From the IMG/VR virus record IMGVR_UViG_2770939586_000001: a stretch of 64,000 bases of DNA; one strand, given 5' to 3'. Below, piece by piece: positions 1 to 45,258 of the stretch (the first letter of the stretch is position 1; each line of letters starts with the position of its first letter). Under the pieces are notes generated by a model that had not been told where the DNA came from, did no database searches, and was given only the letters and a program-made list of their open reading frames with translations. This DNA is from a virus. Lineage: Duplodnaviria > Caudoviricetes. Both the position numbers and the translations under genes were made by a program.

Positions 1-21
1 TTGGGCGAAAGGGTAGAGCAC

Positions 22-1506: not shown

Positions 1507-1523
1507 TTTGGAAGCCAAGTATG

Positions 1524-1551
1524 GGCCCCTGAATTTTATAAGGGGCCTTTT
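1524..1551 (+). terminator. Intrinsic terminator between convergent genes
   Basis: GGCCCCT...AGGGGCC stem followed by TTTT. Confidence 0.7.
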
Positions 1552-1603
1552 AACTTCTGATAAATAACTAAGTGGCAACTTTTCCAGTGTGTTTAAAATA
1601 GTT

Positions 1604-2683: not shown

Positions 2684-2717
2684 AATGTCATCTCCTGGCG
2701 AGTACATTTGAATTTAG

Positions 2718-3566: not shown

Positions 3567-3570
3567 GTAC

Positions 3571-5331: not shown

Positions 5332-5383
5332 GTCATGTCATCTCCTGATTTACTATCTACAAAATGGGCTGTTTTGTAAAAAT

Positions 5384-6954: not shown

Positions 6955-7001
6955 TCAACTTCTCCTTTCCTCGCAATATCACCGTTTGACGTAATAATAG
7001 G

Positions 7002-7349
7002 CTATTCACTATCGTTAATATGTCGTAACCACTTGACATTCGGCATGTAGTAATCGACAAGTTGACTTTTACCACCACGCGGAACAGCTACAATAGCACG
7101 ATTGGTTTTCTGGGCTACATCCTGACCCTTTAACTGATTGCCACTGATACCTTTTGGAAGTATCTGTTTTGCTGATTCACCAGGAGGAAGGTATGTCAAG
7201 AATATGCCGATAGGTTGCTCTTTCTTGACTGGAAATGTGTTACCGATACCGTTGCTCCATGTTACTTTGTCGCCTGGTTGGAAATCTTCCCAGCCTACAT
7301 AATCTACTTCAATTCTGATTTCATCATCGTAGAACATTGGATTCTTCAT
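7002..7349 (-). CDS. Hypothetical phage protein
   Basis: ORF in operon; AAGGAG RBS before ATG 7349. Confidence 0.65.
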   Translation of the reverse strand: MKNPMFYDDEIRIEVDYVGWEDFQPGDKVTWSNGIGNTFPVKKEQPIGIFLTYLPPGESAKQILPKGISGNQLKGQDVAQKTNRAIVAVPRGGKSQLVDYYMPNVKWLRHINDSE

Positions 7350-7395
7350 GCAATTTCTCCTTTCTGTATTTTTCGCTATACATACTCTATACGGA

Positions 7396-7815
7396 TCACT
7401 CACCCTTTTTTTCAGCTGATTTTATCTTTTTTACAACTCGACCGACTGCACTTTTGGAGTAACCGGTTTCCGCCGCGATCTTTCGCACGGTGTACCCTTT
7501 CCTATGCAGCTGCTCAATCTGCTGAAACTTTTCATCTTGCCATCCGAGGGCTTCTTTCAACTCTGGAACGGTGCAGCCAGATTTCCGTGCCTGATAGTAC
7601 AGCCGGTTATAGACCGGAAAAGAGTGTTTCTGGGGAATAGGGGGGAGGGATGTGTCATCTACTAGCAAATATCTCTCATCCCGTAATTCCGGGGCCAGCT
7701 CAATAAAGTAATCTACTGCGTATCGATATAAGCGATAGTCTTTTCTCCTGACTACACTTAGAAATACAATGCCGCCGTTATGATGCTTTGCTAATCGCTT
7801 GGCGACTGGAGTCAT
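7396..7815 (-). CDS. C-terminal helix-turn-helix DNA-binding protein
   Basis: LHRKGYTVRKIAAETGYSKSAVGRVVK HTH. Confidence 0.75.
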   Translation of the reverse strand: MTPVAKRLAKHHNGGIVFLSVVRRKDYRLYRYAVDYFIELAPELRDERYLLVDDTSLPPIPQKHSFPVYNRLYYQARKSGCTVPELKEALGWQDEKFQQIEQLHRKGYTVRKIAAETGYSKSAVGRVVKKIKSAEKKGE

Positions 7816-7841
7816 ACATTTCTCACATCCCTCGCGCTGTA

Positions 7842-8171
7842 TTATCTGCCGCTGTAACGCAAATGAAGGGCTTCGAATACCATTTCTTTATTGTCGCTAT
7901 CCAGATAATCCATGTCACCTAGATTGACTTTGTTATGATCGTTGAAGCAGTTTAGTGCAAGATTTAACATGAACTTTTCTGCTGGAGACCAGGCGCGTGC
8001 AGCTCGTTTGAGTTTAGCGATTTCGATCTGCTCACCTTTGAAGTCTACAAGGTGGATATATTGACTAAGCAGCTCATGCTGGGTAAAGAGGTAAATGATT
8101 GGGCGCCAGTACTGGCTGCGGTATAAATGATCGGGGATAGTCTGGCAAACGATTGGTTCAGTAGTTTTCAT
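7842..8171 (-). CDS. Hypothetical protein
   Basis: GGAGATGA RBS, operon context. Confidence 0.7.
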   Translation of the reverse strand: MKTTEPIVCQTIPDHLYRSQYWRPIIYLFTQHELLSQYIHLVDFKGEQIEIAKLKRAARAWSPAEKFMLNLALNCFNDHNKVNLGDMDYLDSDNKEMVFEALHLRYSGR

Positions 8172-8240
8172 TTTATCATCTCCTGATCTACTTTCATCTA
8201 CTTACAGTATATTTAATGGGCAAGGCACATATACAGACAA

Positions 8241-8327
8241 TTATTTCTCCAGACGACTACGCATTTCTTTGAGCATACGGCGAATGTCGCGGCCCTTACC
8301 AGCATAGACGAACATTATACGGTGCAT
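8241..8327 (-). CDS. 28-aa MciZ-like micropeptide (not in ORF track)
   Basis: MHRIMFVYAGKGRDIRRMLKEMRSRLEK; GGGGATGA RBS; overlaps upstream stop; shares GKxx[ED]IRxxLKE with B. subtilis MciZ. Confidence 0.55.
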   Translation of the reverse strand: MHRIMFVYAGKGRDIRRMLKEMRSRLEK

Positions 8328-9568
8328 GGTATCATCCCCTGTTCAGTAGTGAAATCATGAATTGGAACGAAACTATCACGGTTAATGAAAGTAAAGTTGT
8401 ATATGAAATCTGCCCATCCTTCGAAAATCCGCATGTACATCGTTTTTCCATCGCGGTGAATACACTCCAGTAGTACCCAGTCGTATTGATCTGATTTGTA
8501 TAGACGAACCGGAACGCCGATGCCTGTTTTCTGCCAGTGGGCCAGACGTGTAGAAATGTACTTGTTTTGCTCGGATGTGAGTTCTGGGTGAGAGAATACT
8601 GTATGCTCAACATGGTTCTGATACTCCCGAATTAGCGTGTATTTCTCAAGCTCGAATTTTTCAGCGGCTCCGCTTCGTTTCTGATTGCCAGCTATATCCC
8701 ACATGAAACAAAATGGATATGGTGTTTCGAGTGATGTATTTACACATTCCAGGATGATATGGCCGTCTTTGTCTTGGAACAGACGTAGCGGCTTGACGTT
8801 CGGTTTGCTCAAGCGTGCATCCAGTGCGACCTGTTGTGCATCGGTGAGTTGGGGCTCGGCAGGTTGTGAATCTGTACTGGGATCTCCTGTGCTTGACTCG
8901 CCGGAAAGAGACTGTGCGAACCCTAGGCGCTCCGGCGTTTGTTTGGCGATCCATGCCTTTTTAGGCTGGAACCAGCGGAATCCATGTGCTTTGAGCTGGG
9001 CGAGAACTTCCGGTGCTGGCTTGGATCCGAAACTAACTTCGATACCGTTCTTTTCTTCGTTGAGTGTGATAGTGACAGACTCGGATGGTTCACTGATTTG
9101 TGCGACTTCTTCAGTGATCATGGTAGTTTCTGCACTTGTCTGGGATTGCTTGCGCTCGGCTTTTTTCGCTTGCCATTTTGCCAGACGCTCGGCATACAAT
9201 TCATCAGCAATGCGATTGTACTCTTCGCGGTAGCGGCGGAAGTATGAGTGATCTTGCTCGTACTGCTCAATTAGTTCCTGGTCCATACGCTCCATGATGG
9301 CCGCACGTACTTCATCCGTTTCACTGGCTTGGGCTGTGATGAACATGTTACCGCCGCTCAAAATTTCTCCAGTTGCATCGCAGTAGCGAACTTTCGCGAA
9401 AGAGTCTGTGATTGTGGAAACAGTGGCAGTAGACGGCAGACCATCCCAAGATACGCGAATAGATGCACCCAGGGAATAGCGCTCGGATCGGACAGAGAAC
9501 TTTGTAGCTGGGAATTCCTTTTTCAGAACAGTGCGGATTTGCTTTGCGATTTCTACAACATCAGCCAT
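8315..9568 (-). CDS. LPD29 (large polyvalent protein-associated domain) containing protein
   Basis: AKQIRTVLKKEFPATKFSVRS..GASIRVSW N-terminus; EKNGIEVSFGSKP..LKAHGFRW..KKAWIAK domain; ATG 9568 after GGAGATGA. Confidence 0.75.
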   Translation of the reverse strand: MADVVEIAKQIRTVLKKEFPATKFSVRSERYSLGASIRVSWDGLPSTATVSTITDSFAKVRYCDATGEILSGGNMFITAQASETDEVRAAIMERMDQELIEQYEQDHSYFRRYREEYNRIADELYAERLAKWQAKKAERKQSQTSAETTMITEEVAQISEPSESVTITLNEEKNGIEVSFGSKPAPEVLAQLKAHGFRWFQPKKAWIAKQTPERLGFAQSLSGESSTGDPSTDSQPAEPQLTDAQQVALDARLSKPNVKPLRLFQDKDGHIILECVNTSLETPYPFCFMWDIAGNQKRSGAAEKFELEKYTLIREYQNHVEHTVFSHPELTSEQNKYISTRLAHWQKTGIGVPVRLYKSDQYDWVLLECIHRDGKTMYMRIFEGWADFIYNFTFINRDSFVPIHDFTTEQGMIPCTV

Positions 9569-9946
9569 ACATATCATCTCCTTGTAAATTGTCCCAGTTA
9601 TATTTAGGGTAGAATAGCCAGATTGAAACACTGGTGGGAAAATGCCTACATCTAATGCCGTTAATAGCGAGTGACACAATAAAGAGAGTACGGATAGGGG
9701 TAACAGGATACGGCGATGGATGAGAGAGGAGGGAGGCATGGTGAGAAAAGGGTGAAGGGGTGTCTGCTCCCGCCAGCATACTCGGATATAACTTTTCCAT
9801 GCGTTGCACCATGCATATCGCGTACATTAGTGCCTGTATATGCGTATATCATCCGTGTTTTTCACCTCGAAATGCCACTCGTTCACATATCCGAATACAC
9901 CACTTGCGCCAGAATATCCGAACAATACCATTTGCAGTAGGTAGAA

Positions 9947-9978
9947 CAGGAGAGGGGAGTATAAACTCCCGCGCCCTG
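9947..9978 (-). terminator. Hairpin directly after the radC stop
   Basis: GGGAGT-TTAT-ACTCCC core on the minus strand with an extended CAGG/CCTG stem; no strong U-tract. Confidence 0.4.
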
Positions 9979-9979
9979 G

Positions 9980-10432
9980 TTAGTTCATGTGACCTTTACT
10001 TTTCAAACTGTAATGCCTTCCATCTCCTATGATAATGTGGTCAAGCAGTTCGATGCCCAGAACCTTTCCAGCTTCTTGTAACCGGCGCGTCACGTCTAAA
10101 TCTTCACGGCTCGGTCCTGGATCGCCGCTTGGATGGTTGTGAAACACTACGACAGATGTAGCGTTATTGAGCAATGCCCGTTGGAATACTTCGCGCGGAT
10201 GTACTACGCTACTGTTTACCGAGCCGGAGAAAATCAGGTGTGCGCCGATGATCTCATTCTTGGTGTTGAGTGAGAACATGCCAAAGTGTTCATTCGGCTT
10301 GCTGGATAGGCTGAAAATCTCCTCGATTGCGCGATAGGCTGCGTCTGGACTGGTGACTTTCTTGCTCTCAATGTCATACAGCGCGGCTTTATCCCGGATT
10401 AATTCTACAGAAAATACGTTGATTCGTTTCAT
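9980..10432 (-). CDS. radC: RadC-like JAB/MPN domain protein
   Basis: VHPREVF, HNHPSGDP.PSRED, LLDHIIIG. Confidence 0.92.
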   Translation of the reverse strand: MKRINVFSVELIRDKAALYDIESKKVTSPDAAYRAIEEIFSLSSKPNEHFGMFSLNTKNEIIGAHLIFSGSVNSSVVHPREVFQRALLNNATSVVVFHNHPSGDPGPSREDLDVTRRLQEAGKVLGIELLDHIIIGDGRHYSLKSKGHMN

Positions 10433-10488
10433 ACATATCATCTCCTGGGTAAAATTCGGGGTTCATCCCCTGTTCTGCCTACTGCTAC

Positions 10489-10512
10489 CTACCATAATGC
10501 GTATTATGGTAG
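10489..10512. promoter_or_regulatory. Perfect 10-bp inverted repeat upstream of radC
   Basis: CTACCATAAT-GCGT-ATTATGGTAG; each arm contains a CATAAT -10-like hexamer. Confidence 0.5.
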
Positions 10513-11314
10513 ATGTAATGGGGTGGAAGCGCATCGACGCTCGGAATTATAGGCGTTTATCCAGGCGATGCAGTAAAAACAAAGTGATAAGCAGCAGTAC
10601 ATTTGCCGATGCTAAAAGCCAAACCATGAAAATCACCTTCTTTCTTGCATTTTGGTGGTCACATCGCATAAACTACTGGTAAGGAGAGAAGGCGGGGAAG
10701 TTGAGCGACTTACGCCCGCCTTCCCTTTCTTTATTCTTGCTGTGAATCCGATGTGTCCGCATCGGATTTTTCTTTTTTCTCCCTGCTTGCTTCGATGTTG
10801 AACTCTATGTTGTTCCATTTGAAGCTAATCTTGATGCTTTTGTATGCGATGCAGAGAGCAAGAAAGAGTGCAGTAACCGCAAGAATCGTGACTAAATCTG
10901 GTTGCATTTGCCTTCACCTCCCTTCTCAGTAGAGTCCTCTTTACCCGTGGAGGGGAGCGAGGAAGGAAGGGGATGTTCATGCGTCTACCTCCTTTGTCGA
11001 TGCGCTTCCGGTATTCGGTTTTCAAGGTGCGGCGTGTGTCTGTCGTGGTGTTGACTCAACTATGCATGCGTGGAAAAAAGTTGGGTAGAAAAGTTTTTGT
11101 GTGCCGGTGGATGATAGGGAGCTGTCTGGTGATAGAGTGAATAGCCCCCCCAGTGCTTGGGATGACGCGGGTCTGCGCTTCGCGCCGGGGGTGTCTCCGA
11201 GCACATATATAAATTTTTTTGTCAACTCTGTTGCGCGTCTTGTAAAACTCAAAATTTGCATGAAAAAATGGGCTATTCTTAAAAGTGAGCCTGAATTTTT
11301 TATATGGTAAATTT

Positions 11315-11344
11315 TTGTTCCAAGTTGTTGCGGTGTGCTATGAT
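11315..11344 (+). promoter_or_regulatory. Sigma-A-like promoter of the rightward operon
   Basis: TTGTTC-N18-TATGAT with extended TG; followed by AGTAGAT repeats at 11348-11382. Confidence 0.5.
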
Positions 11345-11405
11345 ATGAGTAGATGGTAAGTAGATACTTGTATCTATCTACCGTCGCGATTTTGAAGATG
11401 AGGAG

Positions 11406-11855
11406 ATGATGACGATGGAGATGAATGAGCAGTATGTAACGGGTAGTCAACATGTAGCAACGCTCAAAACGTATGTATCGTACGAACAGGCGAAAGAGCA
11501 CATGGAGTTGCTGCTGAAGCTTAAGTCTAACGGAATGAAAGTAGAGCAGGAGATTTCGGCACTTGTAAAGTGGATGAGTGAAATGTTAGGTATCGAACCG
11601 GAAGATACGAGTTTTGCGGTGGCTAAACTAAAAGCATTCAGACCATCGATTATGGTGAGGATGTTCATGAGTCAAGCGAATATAAGTGAATACACTAAAG
11701 GGAAACCTTCTTATGGCTATAATGCCGATACGATTGGAGCACACAGTCAATCTGATGTACAGGTATACGTTCCTGTAAGTGAAATTGTAAAGTTTGACAA
11801 TGTTGCAGGAAAGCTTGTAGGGTACAAGATACGGGGAGATGAAGTATGTGAATGA
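11406..11855 (+). CDS. Hypothetical protein
   Basis: First ORF of the rightward operon; GGAGATGA RBS suggests a start near 11415. Confidence 0.7.
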   Translation: MMTMEMNEQYVTGSQHVATLKTYVSYEQAKEHMELLLKLKSNGMKVEQEISALVKWMSEMLGIEPEDTSFAVAKLKAFRPSIMVRMFMSQANISEYTKGKPSYGYNADTIGAHSQSDVQVYVPVSEIVKFDNVAGKLVGYKIRGDEVCE

Positions 11856-14894: not shown

Positions 14895-15048
14895 TGTGAA
14901 AGAGCATGGATTTACACTGGAGAAGCAAGTAGAACAGACATTGAAAAAGGAAGATTTCTTCAAGGGATATAAGCGGCCTGAGTATTTCAAAACTGGTGGA
15001 AGATGCGATTGTAAAAACTGCTCATGTAAAAAAGGTAAGCAGTCATGA
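14895..15048 (+). CDS. Small Cys-tailed protein (start approximate)
   Basis: GGAGGTG RBS then GTG; ends CDCKNCSCKKGKQS; overlaps terL start. Confidence 0.45.
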
Positions 15049-16757
15049 GTAACTTTTATTTAAACAAACTTCTCGGTGATTTCGCTGAGATGGCCGAAAG
15101 TTATGAGGAAAAAGAGGGGATCTGGCGTGAAGAACCGCTAGATTTATTCGAATTTTGTAAGCAGCAGTTAGATATTACACCGTTTGAAGGTAAACAAACG
15201 GAAATTTTCCGTAAAATCAACAACGTTGTCATGTGGAAAATCACACAGGACGAGCAGTATGCGGATACAGCAGAGCAAGATTTAACTGAGATTTTACTCC
15301 TGCTCGGCAAGGGTTCTGGGAAAGATTATATACTAAGTGCGGTATTCTGTTGGATTTCGTATCTGTTAAATTGCTTGAACGATCCACAGAAAACACTAGG
15401 AATAGCTGAGGGGGAAGCGGTTGATCTTGTCAACGTTGCGAATAACACGCATCAAGCGAATGAGGTGTTTTTCTTCAAATTCAAGCAGCGCCTTGCGAAG
15501 TGCGCGTTTTTCAAGCGTGTAGATCGGGAACCGCGTGCGTTTAATGAGTATCAGCCAATGCGGTCTATGATTCGCTTCTTCAACAACATCAAAGCACATT
15601 CCACTCATGCGGATGCGGAAACACTAGAAGGCGCGAATCCTTTCGTTGTGGTATTCGATGAAATATCTGGTATACCATATGAACAGGCTGACAAAGTATA
15701 TGATACGTTCAGTTCATCAGCGGCCACACGCTACAATGACCGTATGCTCCTTCTGTTTATCTCATTCCCGCGTCATCAGGGGGACTTCTTGTATGTCAAG
15801 TTCACTAAGTGGGAGCAGGAAGGTACGCCGCATATTTGGGGCATCAAGGGGAAGTCATGGGAAGTTAACCCGAAAATATCACGGGATAGTTTGCAGAAGT
15901 TTTACGACAAGAATCCAGAAGATGCTAAGATGCGTTATGAATGTATTGCACCGGAAGCGGAAGCAGGATTCTTCGAGTTCCCAGAGAAAATTGACTATGT
16001 AGTTGTGCCGGGGAAGGCTGCACAGTGTCCGGGTGTGGTGATTCAGCAAAAGGTTACGACTCGGATGCTGAAAAACGAAACAGAGGTTCACTTTGTCGGG
16101 TTGGAGATTTTTAACCTGCAATTGAATCCTGAGTACACCTATTATCTCGGCGGCGATGGCGGTGTGGTAACAGATAGCTATGTATTGTGCTTGATGCATG
16201 GAGAACCTACTGTGAAAGAAGAGACGATAGATGTCGAAGTAGTGACACGCATCGTGAATAAGCCGGTAGAGGATTTGTTACTTGAGTGGCGTCCGAACAA
16301 GAAAGAGCGCTTGCCGGTTGATTTGATGAACGTAGCGGAGATTATTGAGTTGATATGTAGTCAAGTGTATGTGAAGAAGGCGCTATTCGATAAGTTTAAC
16401 TCCGCAGATATTACACAACGGTTGATTTCTCTTGGAGTTGATGCGGAGGACAAAAACTTCTCCAACCAGTTTCAAGTCGAAGCCTATAAAAACTTACGGG
16501 GCCTTATCTACACGCAGAATATTGAGTTGTTGGATCACCAGATTACAGATGGTAGTGAGCGTCTGAACGCGAATGAGGAATTGAAAAGGTTGAAGTTGAT
16601 TAATGACTCGAAGATCGATCACGACAGGCAATACGCAAAGGATTTTTCCGATGCACGGATAGCCGCGACTTGGATTTGTACGAACGATACGCCGGAATCA
16701 GAAAGTCATGCGGCTGATATTGGGTTGTTTGGAGCTGTGCGCGGTTCACGTATGTAG
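15045..16757 (+). CDS. terL: Terminase large subunit
   Basis: GKGSGKD Walker A, VVFDE Walker B, ISFP coupling motif, RNase H-like GGDGG..DS, DH....KDFSDA. Confidence 0.9.
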   Translation: MSNFYLNKLLGDFAEMAESYEEKEGIWREEPLDLFEFCKQQLDITPFEGKQTEIFRKINNVVMWKITQDEQYADTAEQDLTEILLLLGKGSGKDYILSAVFCWISYLLNCLNDPQKTLGIAEGEAVDLVNVANNTHQANEVFFFKFKQRLAKCAFFKRVDREPRAFNEYQPMRSMIRFFNNIKAHSTHADAETLEGANPFVVVFDEISGIPYEQADKVYDTFSSSAATRYNDRMLLLFISFPRHQGDFLYVKFTKWEQEGTPHIWGIKGKSWEVNPKISRDSLQKFYDKNPEDAKMRYECIAPEAEAGFFEFPEKIDYVVVPGKAAQCPGVVIQQKVTTRMLKNETEVHFVGLEIFNLQLNPEYTYYLGGDGGVVTDSYVLCLMHGEPTVKEETIDVEVVTRIVNKPVEDLLLEWRPNKKERLPVDLMNVAEIIELICSQVYVKKALFDKFNSADITQRLISLGVDAEDKNFSNQFQVEAYKNLRGLIYTQNIELLDHQITDGSERLNANEELKRLKLINDSKIDHDRQYAKDFSDARIAATWICTNDTPESESHAADIGLFGAVRGSRM

Positions 16758-16758
16758 A

Positions 16759-16785
16759 AATAACCCGGTATAGAACCGGGTTATT
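16759..16785. terminator. Bidirectional terminator between terL and the relaxase gene
   Basis: AATAACCCGGT...ACCGGGTTATT inverted repeat between convergent genes. Confidence 0.7.
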
Positions 16786-17383
16786 GGTCTTTTATAGCGT
16801 TTTTATCCATGAATTCATTGACATCTTTACTTTGGAATACCCGGAAGTGTTCACTTTTTACATTGTATTCTCTTTCTGTAATAAGCCATACATGACCGAA
16901 ATGGTTGCGTTTCTCGGTCCACTTGTCACTAAGAAAATAGGATTCGTATCGCTTGATTTTGTCCGTAATCATTTTTTCTGAATAGATGCTACGCTGAATC
17001 TCAATAAACCACGGAGCACCTTTCCAATGCATATAAATATCCGGCTCAGGTTCACCTTTTTGGAATTTTGGTTCAACAATGAATTCTTTTGGATAGCCGT
17101 ACATTAAGATTTGCTTGTAGAAATCTACGATGAGCAGGTAATGGTTCGTCTTTTGTCCTCCGATTTTGGTGGATGCCGGATTTGGATAGTACACATACGG
17201 CTGTGTGGTTGTATCCGCTTGAATGTATCCGTCTCGACGCAGACGTTTTAATACCAAATTGCAATTGCTGGTTTTACTTTTGTTCGTAGAGAAAAACAGG
17301 TCTGCAATCTGATCGCGTGTCATACATCTAAACATAGACAGGGTGTCGATGATGCGCTTATCTCGTTGTCGCACATTTGTCAC
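16781..17383 (-). CDS. Replication-relaxation (Replic_Relax) family protein
   Basis: RDKRII..L..FRCMTRDQIA wHTH, H.L.IVDFY, PDIY..FIEIQRS nuclease motif; coupled to FtsK. Confidence 0.85.
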   Translation of the reverse strand: MTNVRQRDKRIIDTLSMFRCMTRDQIADLFFSTNKSKTSNCNLVLKRLRRDGYIQADTTTQPYVYYPNPASTKIGGQKTNHYLLIVDFYKQILMYGYPKEFIVEPKFQKGEPEPDIYMHWKGAPWFIEIQRSIYSEKMITDKIKRYESYFLSDKWTEKRNHFGHVWLITEREYNVKSEHFRVFQSKDVNEFMDKNAIKDQ

Positions 17384-18687
17384 TCCAAGTCGAATATTTT
17401 ATTTTCCTCTATTTGCTCCGGTTCGGGCCGGGGCTTTTTTTGTTGGTATGGACGTAGCATTACCTTTGCCATTTTGTCAGCTAAGAACGGGGCCTGGATT
17501 TCCTGAAGGCCACGTTTATATTTTACAAAAGCATAGCCGTCTTCGATTTCTCTATCTGGCTTCATTCGCATGTTTAGGGCGATACCGTAGTTAATATCGT
17601 CTGGCTGGCGGAAGCAGATGCGGACGGTAAGACATTGCTTCAGTTTTCCATCTAATACAGTGCTGTCTGGGCGCTGCATACTTAGCAGGAGAAAGACTCC
17701 ATTCGAGCGACCGACAATTGCGATGTTTTCGATTTTCTCCATGATCGCTTTGTTATCACGGAGCAATGCTACTTCATCAACACAGACAACGATGTAAGGC
17801 ACTTGCTCTGGCAGATCGTCAATGTGAACTTTGCCGTGCTGACGCAAAAGCTGACCGCGTCTTTTGATTTCTTTCTCTATTTTAATCAGTAGTTTGAGTA
17901 GTTTTCCTTCATCGTTTTCATAAAGAGATGCCTGCACATGCTCAATGTTTTCAAACAGGTGAAACTCACTTCCTTTTAAGTCGCAAAGATACAAGTGAAG
18001 TTTTTCAGGGGAAAGGTGTTTTATCCAGGTAGTAATAATCTGCCGGATTTCGGTTGATTTCCCGCTGCCAGTTTCGCCGCAGATAAGAAGGTGTGGATTG
18101 TCAATCATATCAACGATTAGCCAGTATCCTTCTTGGTCTTTACCGATGACGATAGGTAGTTTCATGTCGGATAAGTGGGGGAGAATTTCGTCGAAGTCGT
18201 AGGCGAACGTTTGAATTCCTTTATAATAGGCTTTTACTGTAAAGTGTTTTCCGGTATGCTCAATGAACACATGCTGACCAAATTCTTGTTTAAATAGCCA
18301 TTCTGCTTTGTATACATCGTCTGGATTTATGCCGAAGACGATGTTAAATACGATGGTAATACCTTTGTTGTCGTATTGAATCGCGCGGATTTGAGGATAT
18401 ATTTTCCGTCCGTTTTCTCTTTCTCTGTAGATTTCTCCTTCATCAAAAATTCGTTTCAAGCTGCGTCTTGCTTTTGTATTAGGCATTGACTGATACGTAT
18501 AGTTGGCTACGCCGAGTGAGGTGCATATGCCTGCCAACTTTAAGGCTTGCGTTTTAAGCGCTGTGATTTCGTAAGGGCTAAGCGAATGGATAGGGAGAGG
18601 GATTCCAAACAGAGCCATAGTTTTCGCTGTCATGAAAGCACCGAAGCCGATAGCTAGTGTACCTTGCAACGGAGTCATCTTTTGCAT
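17380..18687 (-). CDS. FtsK/SpoIIIE-family ATPase with N-terminal membrane anchor
   Basis: PHLLICGETGSGKS, DLKGSEF, VCVDE, GRSNG, QRPD. Confidence 0.92.
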   Translation of the reverse strand: MQKMTPLQGTLAIGFGAFMTAKTMALFGIPLPIHSLSPYEITALKTQALKLAGICTSLGVANYTYQSMPNTKARRSLKRIFDEGEIYRERENGRKIYPQIRAIQYDNKGITIVFNIVFGINPDDVYKAEWLFKQEFGQHVFIEHTGKHFTVKAYYKGIQTFAYDFDEILPHLSDMKLPIVIGKDQEGYWLIVDMIDNPHLLICGETGSGKSTEIRQIITTWIKHLSPEKLHLYLCDLKGSEFHLFENIEHVQASLYENDEGKLLKLLIKIEKEIKRRGQLLRQHGKVHIDDLPEQVPYIVVCVDEVALLRDNKAIMEKIENIAIVGRSNGVFLLLSMQRPDSTVLDGKLKQCLTVRICFRQPDDINYGIALNMRMKPDREIEDGYAFVKYKRGLQEIQAPFLADKMAKVMLRPYQQKKPRPEPEQIEENKIFDLE

Positions 18688-18734
18688 TTATTTACCAGCT
18701 CCTCATATCTTATGAACCGATGAAAAAACTCTTC

Positions 18735-19181
18735 CTATTCATTTAGACATACCGCATCTTCTTCGTAAAAAATCCGTCCATTTTCTTCTAGACAATCCAG
18801 TATCTTTACATACTCCGATAACGGAAGTCCTGTCTTTCTCCAAAGCAGATTAGGGTCCTCATTTTGTTCGTCTATACCTGTTGTTTCGATGGCATTTAAA
18901 ACAAGTTGCTTAACGTAGGCAGTGGACTTTTTCCCATTCTCTACTAGCCGCTGAATGCAGTACGTCACAATCCCTTCAACTCCGTCCCGGCCATACCCCC
19001 ATCCAACGACATAAACAGCGCTCTCCATGCCATAACGCCCATATTTTGAGGCGTAGTACACACGATCAAGCAGAAATTCTTGCGTCAATAATTTGATTGC
19101 TGTCAGCATGTTTTGTGATTGTCTTGTTGCTAACAGATGTTCACCATCTTCATCCATAGTGCAGATGTGATATTCTCTCAT
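18735..19181 (-). CDS. Hypothetical protein with possible C-terminal winged helix
   Basis: AAGGAG RBS; LWRKTGLPLSEYVKILDCLEENGRI. Confidence 0.6.
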   Translation of the reverse strand: MREYHICTMDEDGEHLLATRQSQNMLTAIKLLTQEFLLDRVYYASKYGRYGMESAVYVVGWGYGRDGVEGIVTYCIQRLVENGKKSTAYVKQLVLNAIETTGIDEQNEDPNLLWRKTGLPLSEYVKILDCLEENGRIFYEEDAVCLNE

Positions 19182-19200
19182 GCGAATTCTCCTTTACGTT

Positions 19201-19299
19201 TTATACCCAAAACCTTTGCCAAGAGATGACATGCTCTTTATGTTGCCGTTTCCACCATACCTTATGGGCGATATAGCAGCAGATGATGATTGTTTTCAC
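19201..19299 (-). CDS. 32-aa mini-ORF D (Trp-rich, basic)
   Basis: MKTIIICCYIAHKVWWKRQHKEHVISWQRFWV; GAGGAGG RBS, GTGA overlap. Confidence 0.45.
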   Translation of the reverse strand: MKTIIICCYIAHKVWWKRQHKEHVISWQRFWV

Positions 19300-19457
19300 G
19301 GCTTAATTACCTCCTCGATAAATTCACGTAGGAATCCAACATAGGACCGGATATCTTCGACATGGTTATAGACTTCATCAGAAGAAGCAAGGTCTGGAAG
19401 TTCAGATAACTTTCCGCTAATGCGCTTAAATATGAATTCGATTGCTTTTTCTTTCAC
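19296..19457 (-). CDS. 53-aa mini-ORF C, paralog of mini-ORF B
   Basis: MKEKAIEFIFKRISG...HVEDIRSYVGFLREFIEEVIKP; GAGGAGG RBS, GTGA overlap. Confidence 0.7.
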   Translation of the reverse strand: MKEKAIEFIFKRISGKLSELPDLASSDEVYNHVEDIRSYVGFLREFIEEVIKP

Positions 19458-19621
19458 GGTTTAATCGCCTCCTCAACGACTTCCTGCAAGAATTCCAAGT
19501 ACGATTTCATATCGTCCATATGCGGGTGTACTTCTTCCCATCCCCCTAAAATATCTTTTACGTCATAGAATTTCGTTTGAATGCGCTTGAAAAGGAACTC
19601 GATTATTTTCTCTTTTGTCAT
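19454..19621 (-). CDS. 55-aa mini-ORF B
   Basis: MTKEKIIEFLFKRIQT...HMDDMKSYLEFLQEVVEEAIKP; ATGA overlap. Confidence 0.7.
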   Translation of the reverse strand: MTKEKIIEFLFKRIQTKFYDVKDILGGWEEVHPHMDDMKSYLEFLQEVVEEAIKP

Positions 19622-19746
19622 GGCTTTACCACTTCCTTCGCTAACTCGATAAGTGCGTTAATGGTGTCCTGAGTCATGAAGTCAGTCGGATCAACTTTCT
19701 GTACTTTCTCACTGGCTCTAAGCAGCCATTGAAGTAGCTTCCCCAT
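19618..19746 (-). CDS. 42-aa mini-ORF A
   Basis: MGKLLQWLLRASEKVQKVDPTDFMTQDTINALIELAKEVVKP; TGATG overlap with upstream gene. Confidence 0.6.
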   Translation of the reverse strand: MGKLLQWLLRASEKVQKVDPTDFMTQDTINALIELAKEVVKP

Positions 19747-20132
19747 CACACAAAGTCCTTTAGAAAGTCGATTGCATCATGCAGTGATAGTTCTTTTCCG
19801 GGCTGAAGCAGCGTGCGTTTTAGTTCGATGATTTCCTGCTGAAGTTCATGGATTAAATCCATTTCTGATTTTGGAGGAGTAATGTCTTTTGATACTCTAT
19901 CCAGAATTGATTTAAAGCTGGGTGCTTCTTTGACATCGTGCCTGATGAGGTAATCACGAAGCATCTCCAGTTGCTCCTTTGAAGAAGCATTTTTTCGTAG
20001 GTCTTCCAAATACTCAACGGGGTAGAGATATGGTGTGTCAGCCAAATCTTTGAACCGCCATCCCCAGAAGTTGGGTGATGATTTCAGTCCTTGGGAAACA
20101 CCTTCCACGATACCTTTCACAAATCTAATCAT
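19746..20132 (-). CDS. Hypothetical helical protein, first gene of the FtsK operon
   Basis: AGGAGG RBS before ATG 20132; C-terminal coiled coil. Confidence 0.7.
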   Translation of the reverse strand: MIRFVKGIVEGVSQGLKSSPNFWGWRFKDLADTPYLYPVEYLEDLRKNASSKEQLEMLRDYLIRHDVKEAPSFKSILDRVSKDITPPKSEMDLIHELQQEIIELKRTLLQPGKELSLHDAIDFLKDFV

Positions 20133-20283
20133 GGAAAAATCCTCCTGATGTTTTTTTCGCTTATGATGCATAAAAAGCGATAAAGTTGGGCATTGAAATT
20201 CAGTCGCTTCACTCGGCTATCGCCTCACTCTGCTCCTTTAAACAAATGAAAAAGTGTTGATTTTGTTGACTTAAATCCACTAA

Positions 20284-20340
20284 TACTTACGTTTCAGTTA
20301 CTTAATCAGGTAGCTAAGTAGATGCTTAAGTTTTTGCTTA
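20284..20340. repeat. Roughly 12-bp-periodic T(A/G)CTTA repeats
   Basis: TACTTA 20284 and 20299, TGCTTA 20323 and 20335, degenerate copy near 20311. Confidence 0.45.
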
Positions 20341-20346
20341 TGTTTC

Positions 20347-20376
20347 AACCTATGTCGGTAGTTAACTACTTTTGCC
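20347..20376 (-). promoter_or_regulatory. Possible sigma-E-like promoter containing a 12-bp palindrome
   Basis: GGCAAAAG-N14-CATAGGTT; GTAGTTAACTAC palindrome at 20358-20369; -35 match is weak. Confidence 0.3.
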
Positions 20377-20412
20377 TGTACCAGTTAAAAAAATCTACTC
20401 GGAAAAATGGCA

Positions 20413-20439
20413 TAAAAAAAGAGGAGCAGTTAGCCCCTC
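20413..20439 (-). terminator. Terminator of the parM-parR operon
   Basis: GAGGGGC-TAACT-GCTCCTC followed by a T run on the minus strand. Confidence 0.75.
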
Positions 20440-20749
20440 AAAGAAAGTCATCCATATCCAATTGTTCATGTGAATTTGATTGATTTGTAATATTTATAGG
20501 GTGAGAACTTGAGATATGATCTGGTGCGGTTGAAAGGTGATCTGTTTGCTTATGTGAGGGATGAACTCCGTAGTTATAAACCTTCATATCCATGTAAGAT
20601 GTCAGTGCTTTTTTAGCCCAGCCACTGAAATTTGTCGTTTCTTTCCCGATGGTACTCTTACTGGTAGCCTGCGACATACAGTAGTCATAGAGAGCTTTGT
20701 CATGTGGATTATCAAGGTTAAACACGATTGGCTTAACGATTTTTTGCAT
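20438..20749 (-). CDS. Putative ParR-like partition adaptor
   Basis: IVFNL..DKALYDYC..NFSGWAKKAL ribbon-helix-helix-like N-terminus with low-complexity tail; overlaps parM stop; GGAGA RBS. Confidence 0.6.
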   Translation of the reverse strand: MQKIVKPIVFNLDNPHDKALYDYCMSQATSKSTIGKETTNFSGWAKKALTSYMDMKVYNYGVHPSHKQTDHLSTAPDHISSSHPINITNQSNSHEQLDMDDFL

Positions 20750-21533
20750 ACTTTTTCTCCAGGAGCTCATAGTATCCGATTGCATTAGCAAGCAGGTATT
20801 CATCAGGTACGTAGGCTTTTGGATAATATTGTTGGATATACGGCAGCAATTCCAGTGCTTTCCCACCCACAATTCGTACACTTTCATCTGTATCCCAGAA
20901 GCGAGAAACATCAGAGACGATAGCTAATGCTAAATCCTTTATGGAAGAAAAGCGACTTGTATCACAACCATAGGGTAGTGTGAATGATAATTTGTCAATA
21001 AATCGTTTGTTGTTTATTGTGACACAGTTAACAGTCTTCGCTCCAGCATCAATGATATGCTCTAATCCATCTACTTGCCTTGCCCAAAACGCACCGCCAC
21101 CCTCAAAGCTGATTTCGACTACCGGAATTTCTAATTGGCGTGGTCTTCCGTTGAAAATGATATCGTGACGCCCGGATAGAAGGTGACGTAATTTACTTTT
21201 TTCTTCAGCAGTGTGTTGATCCTTCGGCAGTCCAGTAATCAGTGTAATTTTATCATGGGCAGTTGCTGAACAAATGGCAGCGAGAGTGAGGAGGAGTGTT
21301 TGTTCGTGGACTTTTGTTTTTGTCATAAGTCGGCGAGGCAGCTCACTTTCGCGTATGGCTAGATCACCAACGAAATGGTGCTCACCTTTGTAAACGAGTT
21401 CAATGTCAGAAGGCTCTACTTCTCTCAAGTCACGTCTTCGTCCAGAACCAATAACAGACGGAATAACCTTGCCGTTATGTCCGTCATACACTTTGACATT
21501 ACATCTCCCACAATCTATAGCCAGTAATTGCAT
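20733..21533 (-). CDS. parM: ParM/StbA actin-like ATPase
   Basis: LAIDCGRCNVK, IIDAGAKTVN, VGGKA, LANAIGY actin-fold motifs. Confidence 0.88.
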   Translation of the reverse strand: MQLLAIDCGRCNVKVYDGHNGKVIPSVIGSGRRRDLREVEPSDIELVYKGEHHFVGDLAIRESELPRRLMTKTKVHEQTLLLTLAAICSATAHDKITLITGLPKDQHTAEEKSKLRHLLSGRHDIIFNGRPRQLEIPVVEISFEGGGAFWARQVDGLEHIIDAGAKTVNCVTINNKRFIDKLSFTLPYGCDTSRFSSIKDLALAIVSDVSRFWDTDESVRIVGGKALELLPYIQQYYPKAYVPDEYLLANAIGYYELLEKKYAKNR

Positions 21534-21588
21534 CTCCCATACCCCCAGAGTGGTATTACGCAGGTGAAACCTATGCTGATTGGGGTGT

Positions 21589-21631
21589 TACCTACGTTAT
21601 ACCACATTGTATTGAAGGTCTAACGTAGGTA
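21589..21631. promoter_or_regulatory. 11-bp inverted-repeat operator over the parM promoter
   Basis: TACCTACGTTA (21589-21599) / TAACGTAGGTA (21621-21631); extended -10 TGGTATAAC on the minus strand. Confidence 0.6.
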
Positions 21632-21648
21632 TGACTACAAGTAGAGTT

Positions 21649-22197
21649 TTAATCGTAATCAATTTCGACATTTTTTAGTATTTTTCTGAAAGCTGTAAAA
21701 TCAGAATGTTGAAATGGGAAAAAGTCGTTACTCCATTGGTGACCGTATCGTGCCTGTGAGTCTAGGATGCTTAGGATTGCCATTGCATCATCGAATTTCA
21801 TTGTTACCATCAAGTGTTCATTCCAATTTTGTTTTTTCTTCAGAATTTTGTCTGCTTCTTGATATACTGTTCGTGCTTCGGTAGTTAGTCTTTTTAATGA
21901 ATCACGAGTATACAAATTTTTTTTGCCATAAAATTTTTCGTTCCATGTAACCAACTCGAAGAATGCGATGGCGTGAAATCTATTGTCGAAACTATGATAC
22001 TTACCGCCAGTAAACTTGTTCAGTATAGAAATTCGCTGTTTCGTCAAGTGCTTCTTTTGCCATGCCAACGCATCTTTTTGTTGTTTTGTCAAAGTAGCAG
22101 CATGTACAGAAGTGATGACGAAAGATGATTGGACGAAAAGTAGTCCTACAACATTGATTATTAACATCGATGTTAAAGCGATGATTTTCTTTCGCAT
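21649..22197 (-). CDS. Secreted hypothetical protein
   Basis: MRKK + hydrophobic stretch + VHA signal peptide; GGAGGT RBS. Confidence 0.7.
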   Translation of the reverse strand: MRKKIIALTSMLIINVVGLLFVQSSFVITSVHAATLTKQQKDALAWQKKHLTKQRISILNKFTGGKYHSFDNRFHAIAFFELVTWNEKFYGKKNLYTRDSLKRLTTEARTVYQEADKILKKKQNWNEHLMVTMKFDDAMAILSILDSQARYGHQWSNDFFPFQHSDFTAFRKILKNVEIDYD

Positions 22198-22223
22198 TTT
22201 TATACCTCCCTCGTTAAATGTGC

Positions 22224-22251
22224 ATTCGCCTTCATGTATGCAGTTTCCTGC
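22224..22251 (-). promoter_or_regulatory. Sigma-H-like promoter
   Basis: GCAGGA-N18-GAAT on the minus strand just upstream of the RBS. Confidence 0.5.
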
Positions 22252-22330
22252 TTTATTGGATTAATATGTAAAGTCTGCTCTTTTTTAGCGTTCTTGAAGT
22301 ATCTAAAAAGTAAAAAAAGTAAAATCATAG

Positions 22331-22413
22331 ATAACATCAACGTAGGAGCCTGTTACGTTTCAGCGTATGACCCTTATACGTTCTAACGTACCACCCTCAT
22401 ACGTTTCACCGTA
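22331..22413. repeat. 23-bp-periodic palindromes TACG-N6-CGTA (candidate parC centromere)
   Basis: TACGTTTCAGCGTA 22354, TACGTTCTAACGTA 22377, TACGTTTCACCGTA 22400, in-phase half-site ending at 22344. Confidence 0.7.
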
Positions 22414-22601
22414 GGACAAATACATAGATTACTACAAAGATTTAAAAGAGAAGAAGAGGACAGGATAAATCCGAGAAAAGCTAACGTAACAGGGGGATAG
22501 AAAATTATGGGCTACACTCCATATTGCACATGTTGTAGTTCAGCACTTACGTGCTTGGTGATGCAAAAGTTGAAACATGAGTAGATGTTTAGATTATAAA
22601 G

Positions 22602-22667: not shown

Positions 22668-24095
22668 ATGGCAAGCAGGAGATACCAAAAGCGAAAGCAG
22701 GTTAAACAAAAGCAAGCGATGGCGAAGTCGTCTGCACCATTGACGAACGTAAATGACTTTGGTGGAGCACGAACAACAAAGTCGCAACTACGTGCAGGTG
22801 ATTCAGTACCAAGGCGTGTACGGAAAGATTTGAGCCTTGATGAACGGAAGCTGAACACACTACCTGTCGAAAGATTGATGGACTTACTTATCGATGCTCA
22901 CCCTGATGTGGGGTTTGCACTATGGAATTTCCTACGAATCGGAAATACGGATTACATCATCAATGTGAAGAAGCTAAACAGCGATGGTGAGTTTACACAA
23001 GGTAAAAAAATCATCGACCAGTTTATTCAGGCATTATCGATGCCGAACCCGGAACGATACGAGATTAACAGATCGCTTGATAATTTGATTAACCAGCTAC
23101 TTTTGACAACCGTAACGCGAGGTGCTGCATCGCTGGAGACGGTGCTTGGTCAATCGATGTCTGGTGTTGCTTTTCTAGCCCCAATTGATCCGGCCACCAT
23201 CGAGTTTAAGTTTGAGAACGACAGATTTATCCCATATCAGGACAGCTTAAGTCTTGATATTCCCACCTTTTTCTACGAAGCACTAGATCCACTAATCGAT
23301 AGCCCAACCGGAAGAAGCCCCTTTTTAAACGCTATTCAAACCGTCATGTTCCAACTACAGCTACTCAACGATATCAAAGCCGTTGTGCATAACCAGGGAT
23401 ACCCACGCCTAGACATTAAGATACTTGAAGAACTTGTTATCAAGCGCATGCCTCCACATGTTAAGCAGAACGAAGAGAAAAAGCGTCAATATCTACAGGA
23501 GAAGTTACAAGAAATTATCACGATGTACGAACAACTAGAAGCAGATACCACGTTTGTACACTACGATTCCGTGGAGATGGGGATGGTTGGTGGTAAAAGT
23601 GGCGGCGGTGGCGCAATGTTCGATGTGGAGAAGCTAATGGGCGTGATCGACGGGCTTCTTGCAGCTGCATTAAAGACACTGACGACCATTTTAGGACGTA
23701 GAAGCACTGGGAATACGGAGAGTTTTGCCAAGCTTGAAGTAAAAATGTATCTTAAAAGTGTCAAGGCACTTCAAGATGTGGTGGCAAAGCTGTTGAGTCG
23801 AGCGTTCACACTTCTGCTTAATCTGAACGGTAAGCAGGGGATTGTTGAGTTTAAGTTTAGAGAGGCAGACTTACGAAGTGAACTGGAAAAAGCGCAGTTT
23901 GAACAGATTCACCTGCTTAATTGCCAGTTTAAATACAATATGGGCTGGTGGACGGCAGACGAAGCGGCTCAGGCTGCGGTTGGACACAGTGCCGTGTCAG
24001 ATCCAATTCATAATGTTGTGCCGACGAATAAAGATGGACAAACACCAAAAGGAAGTACGGACAACAACCCTAAAGCTGGCGGTAGTAGCGGATAA
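22668..24095 (+). CDS. Portal protein
   Basis: Position before the protease, size, LAPIDPATIEF and PTGRSPF..A portal-like motifs. Confidence 0.75.
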   Translation: MASRRYQKRKQVKQKQAMAKSSAPLTNVNDFGGARTTKSQLRAGDSVPRRVRKDLSLDERKLNTLPVERLMDLLIDAHPDVGFALWNFLRIGNTDYIINVKKLNSDGEFTQGKKIIDQFIQALSMPNPERYEINRSLDNLINQLLLTTVTRGAASLETVLGQSMSGVAFLAPIDPATIEFKFENDRFIPYQDSLSLDIPTFFYEALDPLIDSPTGRSPFLNAIQTVMFQLQLLNDIKAVVHNQGYPRLDIKILEELVIKRMPPHVKQNEEKKRQYLQEKLQEIITMYEQLEADTTFVHYDSVEMGMVGGKSGGGGAMFDVEKLMGVIDGLLAAALKTLTTILGRRSTGNTESFAKLEVKMYLKSVKALQDVVAKLLSRAFTLLLNLNGKQGIVEFKFREADLRSELEKAQFEQIHLLNCQFKYNMGWWTADEAAQAAVGHSAVSDPIHNVVPTNKDGQTPKGSTDNNPKAGGSSG

Positions 24096-31387: not shown

Positions 31388-31422
31388 ATCCTGCCTACTC
31401 TAAGGGCAGGATTATTTTTTTT
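31387..31422 (+). terminator. Intrinsic terminator before the tape measure gene
   Basis: AATCCTGCC...GGCAGGATT followed by a T run. Confidence 0.7.
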
Positions 31423-31438
31423 GATCGGAGGCGCTTAT

Positions 31439-40147: not shown

Positions 40148-40155
40148 TATAGTGA

Positions 40156-40189
40156 AAGTCGTTACCGATTGGTAGCGGCTTTTCTTTTT
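40156..40189 (+). terminator. Intrinsic terminator
   Basis: AAGTCGTTACC-GATT-GGTAGCGGCTT-TTCTTTT. Confidence 0.75.
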
Positions 40190-40394
40190 ATCGAAGGGTT
40201 TTTCTTCTATGATTAAATGTTTTAATGTTATTTACGAGTGTTCATGTTTCTTTATTACGAGATATGTAAGTGCTGTTTATTGTTGATGGGGAAAGAAGAG
40301 TAACTGAGACATAGTAGCATAAATAAAACCCCATCTTAAAGACAGGGTTTGTCATTTAGTTTGTTTTCAGTTAATAATAAAAATTTTCTTTTTA

Positions 40395-45253: not shown

Positions 45254-45258
45254 TATGT

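Follow-up and report, generated by a model that had tools for sequence, protein, structure and literature searches.

A probable two-part accessory cassette, with segregation genes, an origin-like array and a linked FtsK-like/Replic_Relax pair, at the terL/portal junction of an integrated Jenst-like prophage

The DNA considered here is a stretch of 64,000 nucleotides (the window) from IMG/VR virus record IMGVR_UViG_2770939586_000001 (Duplodnaviria; Caudoviricetes). It corresponds to C1:2243347-2307346 of a one-contig genome of 4.12 Mb and begins 3.2 kb inside the left end of a prophage of 112.2 kb. Between the genes encoding the large subunit of the terminase (terL) and the portal protein of this phage, 5,910 nt are coded on the minus strand. 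Read along that strand they hold an origin-like array, a gene for a putative secreted protein, a gene encoding a small actin, an adaptor candidate, a group of orphan genes and, at the end, genes encoding an FtsK/SpoIIIE-like ATPase and a protein of the Replic_Relax family (Table 1). With moderate confidence, given to the explanation as a whole, the region can be considered a mosaic accessory cassette of two parts placed at the terL/portal junction of a Jenst-like siphophage. Part 1, from 22465 down to 20421, would be an episome-handling module, and part 2, from 20171 down to 16781, ends in the motor/nuclease pair, which is a widespread and strictly linked two-gene module. A first-pass annotation of the window had already described a minus-strand cassette separating terL from portal, with terminators of its own and a plasmid-style gene set. 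The borders were identified by PHROG and by comparison with phage Jenst, two terminator-like hairpins are present, and the ParM-like, FtsK-like and Replic_Relax families were all matched, so that this part of the description is real.

Table 1. Features of the terL-portal interval and of its two border genes (window positions)
Feature	Position	Strand	Basis or remark
Terminase large subunit terL, left border	15045..16757	+	phrog_2 7e-17
Palindromic terminator-like hairpin between the convergent terL and Replic_Relax genes	16759..16785		11-bp perfect arms and a T run
Replic_Relax protein, 200 aa: N-terminal winged-helix-like region and PD-(D/E)XK-type nuclease core (predicted)	16781..17383	-	PF13814 1.5e-12; phrog_2190 7e-40
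FtsK/SpoIIIE-like ATPase, 435 aa, motor domain only, weakly hydrophobic N-terminus	17380..18687	-	PF01580 4e-25; phrog_1358 6e-76
148-aa orphan, C-terminal third possibly winged-helix	18735..19181	-	weak structural look-alikes
32-aa mini-gene candidate without supporting evidence	19201..19299	-	list of open reading frames; one chance-level tblastn match, otherwise none
Three overlapping paralogous mini-genes (53, 55 and 43 aa), products ending ...E-x-(V/I)-K-P	19296..19749	-	three-way alignment
141-aa helical orphan	19746..20171	-	likely true start is the second ATG at 20132, after AGGAGG
Terminator-like hairpin closing the parM-parR operon	20421..20439	-	hairpin scan
103-aa adaptor candidate in ParR position	20438..20749	-	start overlaps the parM end by 17 nt
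AlfA-like mini-actin (ParM/Alp family, 266 aa)	20733..21533	-	PF17989 7e-23; phrog_691 2e-42
Inverted repeats directly upstream of parM, TAACGTAGG at 21591-21599 and 21621-21629	21550..21640		repeat search; candidate operator or centromere
182-aa orphan with signal-peptide-like N-terminus	21649..22197	-	one hydrophobic segment
Origin-like array: three 23-bp iterons (AACGTA-N9-TACGYT palindromes) and a conserved A/T-rich element	22339..22465		partial duplicate of the phage's own lambda-type origin
Portal protein, right border	22668..24095	+	phrog_3753 1e-87; 43% identity to the Jenst portal

The closest sequenced relatives of this phage are Brevibacillus phage Jenst (126 kb) and Bacillus phage EZ-2018a (118 kb). 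The head genes form a Jenstvirus-like set in the same order, with 43% identity for terL, 43% for the portal, 38% for the next protein and 31% for the major capsid protein; terL shares its 43% with Jenst gp170 over 570 aa and is also 43% identical to that of EZ-2018a. The gap between terL and portal in Jenst is 741 nt long, with one small open reading frame (ORF), and that of EZ-2018a is similar (both <0.9 kb), so the cassette is an insertion relative to the known relatives. The two cassette genes that were searched for in the Jenst and EZ-2018a records, the FtsK-like and the ParM-like, gave no detectable homologue in either of them. No direct repeats were found at the ends of the cassette, and the sole DNA similarity of the cassette to deposited phages is a match of 104 nt to the iterons. 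As for promoters, the sigma-H-like one that had been annotated does exist as a pattern at 22224-22249, but the window contains 2 matches to it where 1.5 are expected, which is no better than chance. The sigma-70 scan gave 11 sites, fewer than in shuffled sequences (16.2).

The two proteins at the end of part 2 can be assigned to their families with scores above the cut-offs. In active PD-(D/E)XK enzymes Q can substitute for K. The Replic_Relax protein (PF13814, 48.5 bits against a cut-off of 25.3; its Atlas clusters are 96% PF13814) has a predicted core made of E104-P-K, E113-P-D115 and E128-x-Q130, in which E104, E113-P-D115 and E128-x-Q130 are invariant in 21 sequences. These residues fit the PD-(D/E)XK fold that has been assigned to the family (PMC3424549, the portion available), and the relaxase-like nuclease of the first-pass annotation is kept here as a putative one; a PDB profile search with this protein gave no match. 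The FtsK-like gene overlaps the start of the Replic_Relax gene by 4 nt and its product scores 88.9 bits with PF01580 (cut-off 24). Walker A (G-x-T-G-x-G-K-S), Walker B (D-E) and an L-S-x-Q-R motif are invariant in 11 FtsK-like sequences. No gamma (winged-helix) domain was found among the Pfam matches, and the protein ends about 60 residues past the motor in a tail that is not conserved. Its matches in the PDB are EssC, FtsK and a "DNA translocase coupling protein" (6o1w-z, 2e-16), which we take to be TcpA of plasmid pCW3. Neither PADLOC nor NCBIfam gave a specific assignment for the motor or for Replic_Relax.

Homologues of the FtsK-like protein are present in 368 phage records (252 of them from Bacillus) and in 1,158 plasmid records, and the closer subfamily of Replic_Relax in 26 phage and 346 plasmid records. 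All of these Replic_Relax plasmids belong to Bacillales (Bacillus, Priestia, Geobacillus, Parageobacillus, Brevibacillus, Paenibacillus and similar genera). The genera concerned are known as endospore-formers. The 26 phage records come mostly from spore-forming hosts; two are labelled Staphylococcus and one Stenotrophomonas, and these host labels are suspected to be wrong. A profile-guided scan of IMG/VR gave 80 loci, for which the neighbours within 10 kb were surveyed. The Replic_Relax gene follows the ATPase gene directly and on the same strand in every one of the 80, and none has within that distance a homologue of the actin, the adaptor, the 148-aa, 141-aa and secreted proteins, the mini-proteins, terL or portal. 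The co-occurrence of FtsK, Replic_Relax and mini-ORFs, which had been suggested as a survey, was thus not seen in these viral loci. Among 400 sampled genomes of the class 13 carry Replic_Relax, 11 of these with the ATPase gene directly upstream, and the pair is also linked under most of the plasmid matches. The host family and order are represented by only 11 and 18 genomes, with one other carrier, and a search of the genome contigs for related loci with the single FtsK protein gave none.

The pair is usually accompanied by a membrane segment, which in 16 of 20 non-redundant viral loci is found in a small upstream ORF or, in a minority, fused to the N-terminus of FtsK. The pair usually has the lysis genes on one side and the lysogeny switch or an integrase on the other: among 150 neighbouring ORFs of 20 loci there were 11 matches to HTH_3, 6 to Amidase_2, 4 to integrases and 3 to holins, and in phage 268TH007 the order is FtsK, Replic_Relax, two helix-turn-helix (HTH) genes and integrase. 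In DLc1, a virulent phi29-like podophage, the small membrane ORF and the pair are a unique three-gene insertion in the late operon. This phage replicates linear DNA by protein priming (PMC7695010, in the text available). A weakly conserved small ORF with two transmembrane segments (2-TM) was observed before the FtsK-like gene in DLc1 (L061 24525-26504), in 268TH007 (L023 7783-9837) and in plasmid pBH-BAT-15 (L029 128-2287). As it is common to a podophage, a siphophage and a 15-kb plasmid, the mobile unit really comprises three genes.

Turning to part 1, the gene annotated as parM encodes an actin-fold ATPase with 81.9 bits to PF17989 (cut-off 26.3). In the PDB search its best solved relatives were AlfA of the Bacillus subtilis plasmid pLS32 (275 aa, 1.9e-5) and Cbc-ParM of Clostridium phage c-st (2.4e-4), and homologues of about 265 aa occur in 56 phage records. 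The gene that follows had been called parR-like, and its position and its overlap with parM agree with this, but no family match was found. Its 103-aa product gave nothing in PADLOC, NCBIfam or the PDB, and we read it as possibly of the ribbon-helix-helix (RHH) type. In phage Flasso a 76-aa ORF overlaps the end of the ParM gene and matches this one in position and size, an arrangement which supports, by position only, the 103-aa gene as the adaptor. The repeats upstream of parM contain a TAACGTA half-site as in the iterons. With one mismatch allowed their 9-mer has 8 matches in the window where 9.25 are expected (3 of the 8 are exact, and 2 of these are the pair itself); since it is not enriched, it is position and symmetry that make these repeats a candidate operator or centromere. 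The 182-aa protein carries an N-terminal signal-like hydrophobic segment, in agreement with its earlier description as secreted. It has no match in Pfam, PHROG or NCBIfam and a sub-threshold one to LmuB in PADLOC (E 0.0057), and a search of 5.8 billion proteins found only the protein itself.

The origin-like array was not seen in the first reading of the sequence. Its iteron pattern has 5 strand-matches at 3 sites in the window, where 0.05 are expected, and its sole DNA matches are fifteen records of Acinetobacter phages, inside the gene of the replication initiator. In phage AbC62 the gp23 gene, which is followed by a gene for a DnaB-like helicase, has the same iterons in register and then the same A/T-rich element, and the initiator of the prophage is 50% identical to AbC62 gp23 over 155 aa (E 1e-47). 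An equivalent array is present inside the initiator gene of the prophage itself (array at about C1:2317860-2317990, gene region C1:2317407-2318357). The three-way alignment of the window array, the phage's own initiator-gene origin and the AbC62 gp23 iterons has a mean column identity of 76%, and the in-register alignment with the phage's own origin identifies the array at 22339-22465 as a partial duplicate of a lambda-type origin. For this reason the array was dropped as a candidate parC (centromere). The N-terminal domain of the initiator and the 23-bp iterons were also observed to be common to this Firmicute prophage and to Acinetobacter Obolenskvirus phages (L142:1087-1953), and for an origin-initiator pair the span from Firmicutes to Acinetobacter is unusually wide.

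The remaining genes of part 2, which precede the pair, are orphans. The 148-aa protein had been described as a winged-HTH protein, which was not confirmed: the evidence consists of weak structural look-alikes confined to residues 81-148, with TM-scores of 0.35-0.39 when normalised to the query and of 0.55-0.61 when normalised to the short matched models. No match was found for it in Pfam, PHROG, NCBIfam or PADLOC, and a word-seeded search of 5.8 billion proteins returned only itself. Among 1.84 billion representatives there is one clear relative, a fragment of 65 aa that is 68% identical to residues 89-148, together with two weaker partial matches (4e-06 and 9e-05) to much longer proteins. Four mini-ORFs of 32 to 55 aa had been annotated and all are present. 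The 55-aa and 53-aa products are 51% identical to one another (E 1e-17), and a third copy, which has diverged, is found in the 43-aa product; because of this paralogy three of the four look like real genes. The 55-aa product has one homologue, 82% identical, on another contig of 90.8 kb. Finally, the 141-aa protein gave weak matches only, to phrog_4616 (2e-6) and phrog_28024 (9e-4).

This copy of the phage is a prophage integrated in the chromosome by means of a large serine recombinase. The host flanks, left of about C1:2240102 and right of about C1:2352306, are contiguous in four of the five congeners searched (G001, G002, G004 and G005), and the crossover lies inside a short ATAA(A/G)GG stretch common to both junctions and to the empty site. 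A 517-aa large serine recombinase is encoded 20 bp from the right junction, and both phage arms have a 13-bp inverted repeat. The one-contig genome, the exact junctions, the four empty sites and the recombinase at the right end together establish the integration. The element had been proposed to be an extrachromosomal prophage, with a circular contig and the lack of an integrase as the points to check; it proved to have a chromosomal location, defined junctions and an integrase. The fifth congener (G006) has at the same attachment site another insert, of about 4.3 kb (C1:1755178-1759438 of that genome), the first 250 bp or so of which match the left end of this prophage at 96% identity; it is either a prophage remnant or a second element sharing the attachment site. 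At the integration site a small host ORF (about 104 aa) is interrupted, which is intact in the four congeners and for which Pfam has no family. The point of the split was noted as MEHFS.G.WV.FPYNDKGK /.LLLTGYVKEMNKAQ... in its product. Some sporulation genes are restored by the regulated excision of an inserted element.

In addition to the serine recombinase the prophage encodes a 289-aa Xer-like tyrosine recombinase, and its replication genes comprise a DnaD-like (O-like) initiator, a DnaB-type helicase and a primase. Jenst and EZ-2018a each have a Xer-like recombinase and neither has a serine recombinase, and in Jenst an annotated partition gene adjoins the initiator gene. With the Xer-like gene in both relatives, the partition gene in Jenst and no integrase, the phage family looks episomal by gene content. 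The search for a homologue of the initiator of this phage in the relatives, which covered the 29-kb loci of Jenst and EZ-2018a, was negative. A ParM-like protein with an RHH adaptor and a Xer recombinase marks the plasmid prophages of Bacillus (PMC8026635, PMC11526630, passages available). The ParM-like gene, the small gene in adaptor position and the Xer-like gene of this prophage may be said to resemble that set; the extrachromosomal replicon that defines a plasmid prophage was not found here, and the three genes are nonetheless present.

Probably the actin, the adaptor and the spare origin serve the phage in its free, circular state. Following excision or infection, part 1 would position or segregate the circles of phage DNA during their replication, a role that AlfAB has for pLS32 and AlpAC for CGP3, and the spare origin would be bound by the O-like initiator of the phage itself, which is encoded about 52 kb away. 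The array could act as a second origin, in initiator titration or copy control or in the regulation of the operon, or it could be the scar of a rearrangement. Three points weigh against this explanation of part 1. The adaptor candidate has no family match, and a longer frame of 157 aa over its gene gives just sub-threshold, chance-level matches in Pfam and PHROG; for the centromere two different sequences come into question, namely the inverted repeats (21550-21640) and the iteron array (22339-22417), the latter being more simply explained as initiator sites; and the array may be a recombination scar.

The function of the pair in part 2 can be approached through its architecture, which is that of the Firmicute TcpA-type coupling proteins followed by a relaxase and would make it a unit for DNA processing and pumping. 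After binding to a site on the element the winged-helix nuclease would cut or nick it, and the hexameric motor, associated with the membrane, would pump that DNA. We infer a joint action of the two proteins, the passage of DNA through a membrane and also its destination. Tentatively, the pair may serve mobilisation through the mating channel of a helper element, a channel which this genome itself lacks. This possibility is ranked first because in the order and overlap of its genes, in its membrane part and in the families to which it is assigned the pair corresponds to TcpA and its relaxase. Moreover, CONJscan scores PF13814 as MOBC, and tcpA is found upstream of the relaxase gene in integrative conjugative elements (ICEs) and integrative mobilizable elements (IMEs), as described in the passages available from PMC5357655.

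Several observations speak against such mobilisation. The same passages state that the TcpA-type proteins of streptococcal IMEs never occur with MOBC relaxases. A coupling protein of the TcpA type is recognised by a relaxase together with a type IV secretion system (T4SS); here a relaxase-family neighbour is present and no T4SS ATPase was found, the AAA_10/VirB4 search being negative over the whole 4.12-Mb genome, in agreement with the absence of VirB4 already noted in the first-pass annotation. Among five other carrier genomes, only one has a full-length VirB4 match above the cut-off (857 aa, on the same 77-kb contig as the pair), and 225 of the 346 carrier plasmids are typed as non-mobilizable. 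Conjugation also makes little sense for DLc1, given its virulence and its linear, protein-primed DNA. Against a working membrane pump in this phage, the copy in the window is of the fused type and is missing the small 2-TM partner of other loci, and its N-terminus is borderline. The earlier description of this FtsK as membrane-anchored was not confirmed, the best 19-residue hydropathy of 1.55 being under the bar of 1.6.

An alternative that we find unlikely, and which comes second, is forespore capture, in which the nuclease would open or mark the DNA of a non-integrated element and a septal FtsK-like motor would pump this DNA into the forespore, whereby spores would inherit the element. The 346 plasmid records all come from Bacillales genera known as spore-forming, and the carriers have very different lifestyles, including that of a virulent phi29-like phage, with sporulating hosts as the common factor. 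The host of this prophage is Spo0A-positive and carries two SpoIIIE/FtsK paralogues. The involvement of phage FtsK/SpoIIIE homologues in sporulation or DNA translocation has already been printed as speculation (PMC3359378 and PMC4113786, and also PMC3853050, in the parts available). Nevertheless, all 13 carriers are Spo0A-positive in a sample where this is true of 335 of 401 genomes (84%; probability by chance about 0.1), and with such a background the Spo0A test is uninformative for a restriction to spore-formers. A gene pool common to these hosts and the threshold set for tblastn may be enough to account for the host range. The Pfam family is reported also from Actinobacteria and Streptococcus (PMC3424549, portion available), and the homologue in phage Fah is described as a delayed-early lytic gene (PMC4113786, portion available). 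Furthermore, an integrated prophage gets into the spore regardless, and the sigma-H-like pattern is at chance level. A little less probable still is the wider proposal that the trio of a small membrane protein or fused anchor, the FtsK-type motor and the winged-helix PD-(D/E)XK nuclease is a portable device for entry into spores, in which the nuclease would open the DNA at a specific site and the motor would thread it through the sporulation septum. If this were true, any non-integrated phage or plasmid that gained the trio would be inherited in endospores, including a virulent phi29-like phage, and the same would apply to this prophage after its excision, when the AlfA-like actin and the spare origin would keep it at the pole.

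Two further explanations are, in our opinion, improbable. According to the first, which follows the labels given by PHROG and RefSeq, Replic_Relax would nick an origin and the ATPase would aid unwinding, the two forming a second, plasmid-type replicon. Both phrog_2190 ("replication initiation protein") and phrog_9381 ("replication initiation by nicking") point in this direction, as do the Pfam literature, which ties the family to the replication of plasmid pUA140 (PMC3424549, portion available), and the 15-kb plasmid pBH-BAT-15, which has no other annotated Rep. However, the carriers that were examined all possess a complete and unrelated system of replication (here an O-like initiator with DnaB and primase, in DLc1 a terminal protein with PolB, in 268TH007 a helicase loader), which disfavours this role; the usual site of the pair is moreover outside the replication modules and its membrane partner is conserved. 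The second holds the pair to be exclusion or defence cargo, a membrane ATPase and a nuclease expressed from the prophage that would attack incoming foreign DNA. The pair does usually occupy an accessory "moron" position next to genes for lysis and lysogeny, PHROG places the ATPase in the category "moron/host takeover" and there is similarity at the domain level to the ATPase domains of SspH, mad8 and HerA. But no PADLOC model matches Replic_Relax, the matches of the ATPase span the generic P-loop domain only, and the pair is found in the late operon of a virulent phage. The self-sufficient, T4SS-independent transfer device of the Streptomyces TraB or Thermus TdtA type that the first-pass annotation had seen in the whole second operon is very improbable: the FtsK-type motor, the possible membrane anchor, the DNA-processing partner, the lack of a T4SS ATPase in the genome and a weak similarity to plasmid TraB would agree with it, but the TraB model NF041214 gives 39.3 bits, far below its cut-off of 800, the pair is widespread alone and the extra genes of the operon (mini-ORFs, 148-aa and 141-aa genes), like ParM and ParR, accompany it in none of the 80 viral loci, so that these orphans are not part of a conserved device, and to our knowledge, no dedicated literature search having been made, no such transfer has been described in unicellular Bacilli.

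Some other genes of the prophage were observed outside the cassette. On the minus strand at window positions 1-11500 there is a run of genes of DNA-modification or anti-restriction type, encoding a PAPS-reductase-like protein, Dam-type and C5 methylases, an SNF2 helicase, an LPD29 polyvalent-protein domain and RadC, with a gene for a Schlafen-like helicase on the plus strand. The tail genes (31421-40147 and 45250-48873) encode a tape-measure protein of 2,908 aa and a tail protein of 1,207 aa with M23 peptidase and amidase domains, and a 202-aa protein with an S-layer-homology domain is encoded at 43275-43883. The G+C content dips sharply at 40001-42000 and 1-2000 (0.32 and 0.34, against about 0.44), and the first of these dips coincides with a lone minus-strand orphan gene of 440 aa (40395-41717) directly after the tape-measure gene. 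In the right arm of the prophage there are genes for a protein with a TIR domain and for two factors of the sigma-70 family (C1:2329340-2330242, 2332905-2333792 and 2341006-2342370).

Each component of the cassette is of a kind already described, and it is the location that is unusual. The pairs of Bacillus phages (BtCS33, phiCM3, PfEFR-4/5, 268TH007, GBSV1 and DLc1) and of Bacillaceae plasmids have the same families, order and overlap, with 35-48% identity. Unlike those of the phages, the pair described here is placed between terL and portal on the opposite strand and not beside lysis or lysogeny genes, has a weakly hydrophobic fused N-terminus in place of the 2-TM partner and is preceded by orphan genes. 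The published accounts of the carrier phages and plasmids, in the portions available, report no functional test of the pair. In the TcpA and relaxase systems of Tn916, ICEBs1, ICESt3 and pCW3 the gene of an FtsK-like ATPase, with one motor and a membrane part at its N-terminus, directly precedes that of a protein that nicks DNA (PMC5357655, passages available). The pair has a like arrangement, with a borderline N-terminal segment and a putative nicking protein, whereas the partner here is of the PD-(D/E)XK (MOBC) type and not a rolling-circle-type relaxase, no mating-pore genes were found in the genome and the carriers are phages. With Streptomyces TraB the differences are the lack of a C-terminal DNA-recognition domain and the NF041214 score.

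Part 1 resembles AlfA/AlfB/parN of pLS32 (10.1101/190744, portion available) in its short actin of about 270 aa, best matched to AlfA, and its small downstream gene in adaptor position, and the Bacillus plasmid prophages IEBH, B83 and Bp8p-C (PMC8026635, portion available) in the actin, the small gene and the Xer-like recombinase. It differs from these in that the phage is integrated, by a serine integrase, and in that the adaptor is without family match. In the integrated Corynebacterium prophage CGP3 the AlpAC system, an actin-like protein with its adaptor, has been implicated in the transport of viral DNA and in efficient replication after induction (PMC4446434, PMC5539076, portions available), but its actin subfamily and host phylum are other ones and it is likened here by description and not by sequence. 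The array can be compared with two familiar arrangements. As in the lambda-type origin of the O gene, the initiator gene itself contains the iterons (three or four, of 23 bp) and an A/T-rich element and precedes the gene of a DnaB helicase. A second array near the putative partition genes recalls the extra iteron arrays of P1-type plasmid prophages, such as incA. In contrast to these, the second array of this phage is 52 kb from the initiator gene, at a junction of head genes. As far as searched, the terL/portal placement, the initiator/iteron pair common with Acinetobacter phages, and the quantified obligate linkage of the pair with its membrane partner in cis or in trans appear to be new in the literature; the same applies to the origin duplicate beside segregation genes, to which no dedicated literature search was given.

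The pair is common, as plasmids carry it by the hundred and phages by the dozen in Bacillus and related genera, among them phages of species that matter in medicine and industry, and it is annotated in three incompatible ways, as "replication initiation", "cell division" and "relaxase". The present survey narrows these options: the pair is an obligate unit with a usual membrane partner, its carriers have complete unrelated replication systems, and it occurs in a virulent protein-primed phage and mostly in genomes without a mating channel. Moreover, the cassette shows how a phage family that looks episomal can turn integrative while keeping and relocating its origin and segregation functions, and it brings to light an initiator that is conserved, together with its iterons, in a Firmicute prophage and in phages of Acinetobacter.

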